From Escherichia phage TH09: a DNA stretch of 64,000 nucleotides. The stretch's first letter is position 1. The number at the start of each line of letters is the position of its first letter. Below are positions 51,896 through 52,592 of the stretch, in pieces. Under the pieces are notes generated by a model that was not told the origin of the DNA, made no database searches, and worked only from the letters and a program-made list of their open reading frames with translations. A program made the translations under genes and the position numbers. The DNA is taken from the sequence record MT446387.1; one strand, 5' to 3'.

Positions 51896-52137
51896 TGTCT
51901 GAACAAACTATTGAACAAAAACTGTCTGCTGAAATCGTAACTCTGAAGTCTCGTATCCTTGATACGCAGGACCAAGCGGCTCGTCTGATGGAAGAATCCA
52001 AAATTCTGCAAGGAACTTTGGCTGAAATTGCTCGTGCAGTAGGTATCACTGGCGATACTATCAAAGTTGAAGAAATCGTTGAAGCTGTCAAGAATCTTAC
52101 TGCTGAATCTACTGATGAAGCAAAAGATGAAGAATAA
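51895..52137 (+). CDS. 57A: tail fibre assembly chaperone gp57A
   Basis: 80-aa coiled-coil ORF, T4 gp57A length and position. Confidence 0.85.
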
Positions 52138-52592
52138 TGGAATTTAAAGACTTTTCAACGGGTCTTTATGTAGCAGCTAAGTTTTCAGAATTAACACTTG
52201 ATGCGCTGGAAGAACTCCAGCGCTCTTTACGTGTTCCTAATCCAGTTCCTAGAGAAAAAATTCATTCGACCATATGTTATTCAAGAGTAAATGTTCCGTA
52301 TGTTCCATCAAGCGGAAGTTTTGAAGTAGCTTCTTCTGGACATTTAGAAGTATGGAACACACAAGATGGATCGACTCTTGTACTTGTGCTAGATTCTGAC
52401 TATCTGCGCTGTCGACACATGTATGCGCGGGCACTAGGTGCTACACATGATTTTGATGATTACACACCGCATATAACATTGTCTTATAATGTTGGGCCCT
52501 TATCATTTAGCGGTGATGTACAAATTCCGGTCGTATTAGATCGTGAATACAAAGAGCCTCTTAAACTCGATTGGGCAGATGATTTAAAATAA
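52137..52592 (+). CDS. 57B: gp57B = Acb1 anti-CBASS 2H phosphodiesterase
   Basis: 151-aa ORF in the gene 57B position; two H-x-T/S motifs (HSTI, HITL) typical of 2H phosphoesterases. Confidence 0.8.

Follow-up and report, generated by a model that had tools for sequence, protein, structure and literature searches.

Phages can erase the signals of bacterial immunity by enzymatic means, and Acb1 is a textbook case. In T4, the product of gene 57B was identified as Acb1, the cGAMP-degrading activity, through activity-guided fractionation, and the structure of a homologue from phage FBB1 was reported with ligand in the same work (Hobbs et al., 2022, PMC9117128). That study defined structurally, and mutated, an HxT/HxT tetrad (H44, T46, H113 and T115 in T4 numbering), and it assigned the residues of T4 Acb1 that meet the ligand, namely Y12, W74, F107 and W147 for stacking, E141 for the adenine contact and a C-terminal lid spanning residues 145-152 (PMC9117128). 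The reaction is metal-independent and runs in two steps via a cyclic phosphate, with the cut made 3' of adenosine; 3'3'-cGAMP, cUA and cA3 are cleaved by the T4 enzyme and cGG is not (PMC9117128). Deletion of acb1 makes T4 sensitive to CBASS (PMC9117128), and a transposon screen has found 57B/acb1 to be conditionally important on a CBASS-expressing host (preprint 10.1101/2025.11.20.689424). Possession of the enzyme can also be turned against the phage: Panoptes guard systems, which fire upon the disappearance of cyclic nucleotides, restrict Acb1-encoding phages of the T4-like group, and escape occurs by inactivation of acb1 (PMC13577387).

A second group of T4-like proteins acts on restriction. 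These proteins are injected, and the Ip loci are regarded as their hotspot (PMC12373910, PMC3012670); in T4, Ip1, Ip2 and Ip3 are inhibitors of GmrSD, each of a different enzyme (PMC12373910), and Bas37_0260 inhibits McrBC according to a 2025 preprint (10.1101/2025.11.20.689424). It has been proposed that small cassettes known as PeSL (promoter-early stem-loop) underlie the swapping of modules in T4-type phages (PMC2839356, PMC4122927). Here we compare these described systems with the acb1 locus of Escherichia phage TH09 and with the ip genes that follow it.

Results

Identity of the 57B product

The window, by which we mean the whole 64,000-nt stretch of Escherichia phage TH09 that was analysed (sequence record MT446387.1), belongs to a Tequatrovirus, a T4-like phage, with best matches over 24 kb at 97-98% identity. 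On its plus strand, an ORF with an ATG start at 52137..52592 encodes a 151-residue protein, and we are very nearly certain that this ORF is acb1 (57B) of a T4-like phage and that its product is an anti-CBASS 2H phosphoesterase, a cyclic-oligonucleotide phosphodiesterase of the 2H type. Three comparisons carry the assignment. The protein matches the Pfam Acb1 family (PF23474) at 202.7 bits, where the cut-off is 27, with E=2.7e-60 and the profile covered from position 1 to 144 of 144; a PDB sequence search returned 7T26 and 7T27 at E=1.5e-62 over residues 8-148, together with two weaker entries also named 'Anti-CBASS protein Acb1'; and alignment to T4 57B (NP_049750.1) gives identity at 149 of the 151 residues. 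At the DNA level acb1 differs from its T4 counterpart at seven positions, five of which are synonymous, a ratio that fits purifying selection on the gene. T4 Acb1 is annotated one methionine longer (MMEF...), whereas the window has ATA at that codon; the start therefore falls at the second methionine, and residue numbers in the window protein are those of T4 minus 1.

A sequence-only reading had singled out this protein for its two HxT/S motifs and its 57B position, had equated it with the known T4 enzyme and had named alignment of its His motifs to the active site of Acb1 beforehand as a check. Taken by itself the motif count is weak evidence, because at least two HxT/S motifs also occur in 16% of shuffles of the product; five histidines are present, exactly two of them within such motifs. 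What takes the motif pair beyond chance is the homology to the Pfam family, to PDB 7T26 and to T4 57B. The alignment came out as that reading had expected: the first motif, H43-S-T45 (52263..52271, plus strand), falls on T4 H44/T46 and the second, H112-I-T114 (52470..52478, plus strand), on T4 H113/T115, the residues of the published tetrad (PMC9117128). The tetrad and Y11 are invariant in an alignment of nine family members that reaches down to 27% identity (T4, FBB1, RB49 and Aeromonas, Acinetobacter, Vibrio, Klebsiella and Salicola phages, representing six phage genera and two unclassified phages). By alignment with T4, the window protein further shares the base-stacking residues Y11, W73, F106 and W146 and the adenine-contacting E140, and its C-terminal 63 residues, including the lid, are identical to those of T4.

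The crystallised homologue lies at a greater distance. Acb1 of the Erwinia phage FBB1 (7T26 apo, 7T27 with 3'3'-cGAMP) is 69% identical over 141 residues and shows the same HxT/HxT tetrad and membership of the same 2H phosphoesterase family, but ~30% of positions differ, the stacking position occupied by W in the window holds F, and the loop that follows the W/F74 strand is longer by one residue. Identity of 69% to a crystal structure settles the 2H fold of the acb1 product; a single-sequence AlphaFold2 model was of poor quality (mean pLDDT 41, pTM 0.37). An NCBIfam search with Acb1, with the two downstream proteins Ip5 and Ip6 and with a 171-aa ORF described below gave zero matches. We discounted the antisense ORFs over acb1 (e.g., 52249..52434, minus strand, 61 aa), for which there was no support. 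With the T4 enzyme 99% identical, the window protein would be expected to share its catalytic activity and to confer its anti-CBASS phenotype. The acb1 finding is thus already known, since a near-identical orthologue has been characterised biochemically, structurally and genetically.

Genomic setting of acb1

The surroundings of the gene are those of T4 as well. The order 4-2-3-1-57A-57B-ip-trna.4-trna.3-trna.2-tRNAs is the T4 order (NC_000866), on the opposite strand, and this synteny bears out the 57B position; T4 Acb1 is likewise located between 57A and the ip locus. Over the 3.5 kb surrounding acb1, identity with phage JLBYU31 is 99.7%, and in JLBYU31 and the closest genomes acb1 is labelled 'putative phosphodiesterase'. 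Directly upstream lies gene 57A, which encodes the 80-aa tail-fibre chaperone (51895..52137, plus strand; Pfam GP57, E=2.6e-50). Its TAA stop overlaps the ATG of acb1 as TAATG (junction GAATAATGG), which makes translational coupling of the two genes likely. A promoter scan found no promoter-like site directly 5' of acb1, and a late-promoter motif, TATAAATA, is situated at 51532, within gene 1 and upstream of 57A; acb1 is probably co-transcribed as well as translationally coupled with 57A. Distant phage genera, too, keep 57B linked to the gene for the tail-fibre chaperone.

The internal protein genes ip5 and ip6

The sequence-only reading had noted genes bearing a capsid-targeting sequence (CTS) immediately after acb1, and these are indeed the next two genes, opening with MKTFKEFATKTTITE at 52665 and MKTFKEFIAE at 52999 and matching internal head and internal virion proteins in PHROGs. 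The first, ip5 (52665..52922, plus strand), encodes an 85-aa internal (injected) head protein (phrog_3499) that is 100% identical to RB15 Ip5 (Z35082.1), to ipV of Yersinia phage PST and to bas37_0261. The second, ip6 (52999..53232, plus strand), encodes a 77-aa internal protein that is 100% identical to ipVI of PST and 73-78% identical to other annotated Ip6 proteins. Its start needed some care: the ORF finder lists ip6 from a TTG at 52933, and JLBYU31, the nearest GenBank relative, annotates the gene from the same upstream TTG as a 99-aa product (window 52933-53232), whereas PST and the BASEL phages use the 77-aa ATG start. Because the TTG extension holds the ip6 promoter, and because an RBS-ATG repeat (D2) is found at the ATG only, we take 52999 to be the real start.

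The closest functionally described relative of Ip6 is Bas37_0260 of phage KarlGJung (MZ501089), the McrBC inhibitor reported in a preprint. It is of equal length and sits at the same position, with 73 of 77 residues identical (95%); the four differences, at residues 4, 5, 11 and 12, fall in or just after the leader. T4 IPI (IPI*, the GmrSD CT596 inhibitor) occupies the same locus between the same flanking promoter/stem-loop cassettes and has the same type of N-terminal leader. The leaders of Ip5 and Ip6 are of the MKT(F/Y)(K/Q)EF type with an (I/L)xE-type end site and align with that of T4 IPI, which the Ip5 leader, MKTFKEF..TITE, resembles. Beyond the leader, IPI has no similarity to Ip5 or Ip6, a forced alignment giving a scattered 18-28% identity. 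We therefore ruled out T4 IPI as the identity of either downstream gene, since only the leader aligns. By their identity with named Ip genes the two are Ip5 and Ip6. PDB sequence searches with Ip5 and Ip6 returned nothing meaningful.

Promoter/stem-loop cassettes around the ip genes

A promoter/stem-loop unit of ~70 nt (repeat family D1) occurs in three copies that bracket ip5 and ip6, all on the plus strand. The first (52577..52647, fold z-score -3.3) lies 5' of ip5 with an early-type promoter, TTTACA-17-TACTAT, at 52606..52634; the second (52907..52977) lies 5' of ip6 with its promoter at 52936..52964; and the third (53205..53275, fold z-score -4.0) is upstream of the trna.4 homologue and closes the swappable ip module. 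The TTTACA-17-TACTAT promoters of the first two, with TG before the -10, were found by the promoter scan, and in the repeat alignment the third retains GTTTAC and TACTAT. In each cassette a stem-loop covers the -10 and folds better than shuffles (z-scores -3.0 to -4.0); the stems differ in sequence with pairing maintained. As predicted promoters, cassettes 1 and 2 would drive ip5 and ip6, respectively.

These units, each with a GTTTAC -35, a TACTAT -10 and a stem-loop, bracket small accessory genes and are of the type of the published PeSL of T4-type phages (PMC2839356, PMC4122927). The same cassette stands on both sides of ipI in T4, which explains how one locus can hold IPI in T4 and Ip5 plus Ip6 here, and the arrangement suggests cassette-mediated swapping of the ip genes.

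Several further features were noted elsewhere in the window. The second Ip locus of T-even phages is found at 62565-63038, directly after denV, where a 157-aa ORF starting MKTYQEFITEA matches an internal virion protein family (phrog_3155) and differs in length from T4 IPII/IPIII. Two paralogous ORFs of 157 and 187 aa (55979-56452 and 56571-57134) both match phrog_2280, of unknown function; they have CTS-like leaders, MKSYAQFLNEA and MKTYAEFLTEA, and are each preceded by a repeated hairpin/T-run element (55898-55937 and 56457-56496). These paralogues may be further injected internal proteins. A 171-aa ORF (phrog_2290; 54152-54667) separates the homologue of trna.2 from the tRNA cluster, a position at which T4 has no counterpart. 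The cluster itself, at 54754-55585, comprises ten tRNA genes (Gln, Leu, Gly, Pro, Ser, Thr, Met, Tyr, Asn and Arg) on which ARAGORN and Rfam agree; compared with the eight tRNAs of T4, it has no segB homing endonuclease gene and carries Met/Tyr/Asn in place of the T4 Ile. ARAGORN also calls a 94-nt 'tRNA-Lys(ttt)' at 55758-55851, unsupported by the Rfam tRNA model. Given that the T4 region with tRNA-Arg and the stable RNAs rnaD/rnaC matches 55532-55908 at 89.6% identity, this call is probably the tRNA-like part of an rnaC homologue.

Acb1, Ip5 and Ip6 as neighbours

A further claim of the sequence-only reading was that acb1 heads a run of anti-defence genes. With Ip6 95% identical to a reported McrBC inhibitor and T4 Ip1-3 acting as GmrSD inhibitors, the description is well founded for Acb1, Ip5 and Ip6 (for Ip5 by family analogy only), and it finds no support in the next four ORFs, which have no known function. 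The homologues of trna.4, trna.3 and trna.2 and the 171-aa ORF have PHROGs matches only of unknown function.

We put only a little short of an even chance on acb1 and the ip genes being neighbours for historical and not functional reasons, such that acb1 just ends a conserved 1-57A-57B block that abuts an ip-swapping recombination hotspot, with no co-selected or co-regulated island. The swappable cassette module described above suggests this possibility. In distant genera acb1 stays with 57A and the downstream genes differ; in T4 the same cassettes enclose another ip gene; swapping by way of PeSL has been documented (PMC2839356, PMC4122927); and the genes of known counter-defence families give out after ip6, with four ORFs of no known function. 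We found no evidence for co-regulation of acb1 with the ip genes, each of which has its own promoter cassette. Against a purely historical adjacency, however, stand the tendency of phage anti-defence genes to cluster, the fact that three consecutive genes here come from counter-defence families, and a single transposon screen in which the Bas37 orthologues of Ip5 and Acb1 were both depleted on the clinical strain CFT073.

The numbers of that screen are found in the supplementary resampling table of the HIDEN-SEQ preprint (10.1101/2025.11.20.689424). On CFT073 relative to K-12, the Bas37 Ip5 gene, whose product is 100% identical to that of the window, had a log2FC of -2.09 (~4-fold depleted, adjusted p printed as 0.00000), and the Acb1 orthologue had a log2FC of -1.56 on this uropathogenic strain (adjusted p of 0.003). 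The Ip6 orthologue had a log2FC of +5.04 in the same comparison, meaning that it was needed on K-12, and strain CFE299 showed no effect for either Ip5 or Acb1 (10.1101/2025.11.20.689424). The Ip5 depletion goes undiscussed by the preprint authors (10.1101/2025.11.20.689424). A second indication comes from combining a published table with sequence identity: RB15 has an Ip5 identical to that of the window and no IPI, yet is unrestricted by the CT596 GmrSD, and T2 is restricted. We read the CFT073 depletion and the RB15 resistance as hints of an anti-defence role for Ip5. We dropped the notion that the single-chain, IPI*-insensitive GmrSD is present in CFT073, as the literature places that enzyme in UTI89. 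We propose tentatively, and think it rather likelier to fail than to hold, that Ip5 inhibits a defence of wild E. coli, most plausibly type IV restriction of the GmrSD kind, and that Acb1, Ip5 and Ip6 form a contiguous counter-defence block whose ip part may be exchanged via PeSL.

The N74/D88 allele and other functions for acb1

The two substitutions that separate the window protein from T4 Acb1 are N74 (T4 K75N) and D88 (T4 E89D). Within a collection of 50,697 phage records, the exact N74 plus D88 protein was absent among the 1,471 with a homologue; the closest record was 99.3% identical to the window Acb1, and about 500 records fell at 95-99%. JLBYU31 and Bas37, the closest genomes, have the T4 residues at both substituted positions. 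Exact 23-mers across the N74 and D88 codons had no match in IMG/VR, an absence that says little, since the T4 version of one such 23-mer had only two matches there and few close T4 relatives are thus represented.

Such rarity could be taken to mean that K75N and E89D have altered the enzyme relative to T4 Acb1, shifting its substrate range or weakening it, for instance to avoid Panoptes-type guards that sense Acb1 activity. The identical protein is missing from all 50,697 records and hundreds of relatives keep the T4 residues, N74 adjoins the base-stacking W73, and mutation of acb1 is a known route of Panoptes escape (PMC13577387). We nevertheless regard this as very improbable. The FBB1 enzyme, which has been crystallised and is active, has E and D at window positions 74 and 88, so both sites tolerate variation in active members of the family; the reported Panoptes escapers have predicted inactivating mutations and not conservative changes (PMC13577387), whereas here the reading frame is unbroken and no catalytic or binding residue is lost; and the synonymous excess (5/7) indicates ordinary drift under constraint. 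We infer that the N74/D88 allele is functionally ordinary.

Less probable still is that the acb1 product is a general LigT-type RNA-end enzyme (a 2'-5' RNA ligase or 2',3'-cyclic phosphodiesterase) serving RNA repair or processing and not acting on immune signals, a function to which PHROG 755 and many RefSeq records ('RNA ligase') and one further record ('RNA 2',3'-cyclic phosphodiesterase') allude by name, and with which the common 2H HxT/S chemistry and the nearby tRNA cluster would agree, but against which it counts that the 'RNA ligase' label is older than the 2022 characterisation, that a Pfam search at E<=0.01 gave Acb1 only and no LigT or 2'-5' RNA ligase family, that the residues binding ligand in the cGAMP complex are all conserved in the window protein, and that the 99%-identical T4 protein was found as a cGAMP-degrading activity whose deletion sensitises T4 to CBASS (PMC9117128).

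Discussion

With acb1 read as the anti-CBASS gene of a T4-like phage, its action can be pictured from the T4 and FBB1 work. The gene would supply a small, metal-independent 2H phosphoesterase in which the bases of the ligand stack on Y11, W73, F106 and W146 and the C-terminal lid closes over them. The 3'-5' bond 3' of adenosine would then be cut by acid-base catalysis through H43/T45/H112/T114, by way of a 2',3'-cyclic phosphate intermediate. Once the signal is gone, CBASS effectors would remain off, and the cell would not be killed before the phage cycle ends. By analogy with T4 Ip1-3 and Bas37_0260, Ip5 and Ip6 would be packaged, trimmed by the prohead protease and injected with the DNA, and they may block modification-dependent type IV restriction enzymes, with McrBC as the likely target of Ip6.

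The presence of acb1 predicts resistance to many CBASS systems and, at the same time, detectability by guards such as Panoptes. As Panoptes restricts phages with Acb1, the intact acb1 of this phage has a cost as well as a benefit. For T4-like phages, both predictions have been made before. What novelty remains concerns not the gene that the sequence-only reading had put first but the target of Ip5. This protein, along with Acb1 and Ip6, may affect which wild E. coli such phages infect, which would be relevant to the choice of phages for therapy.
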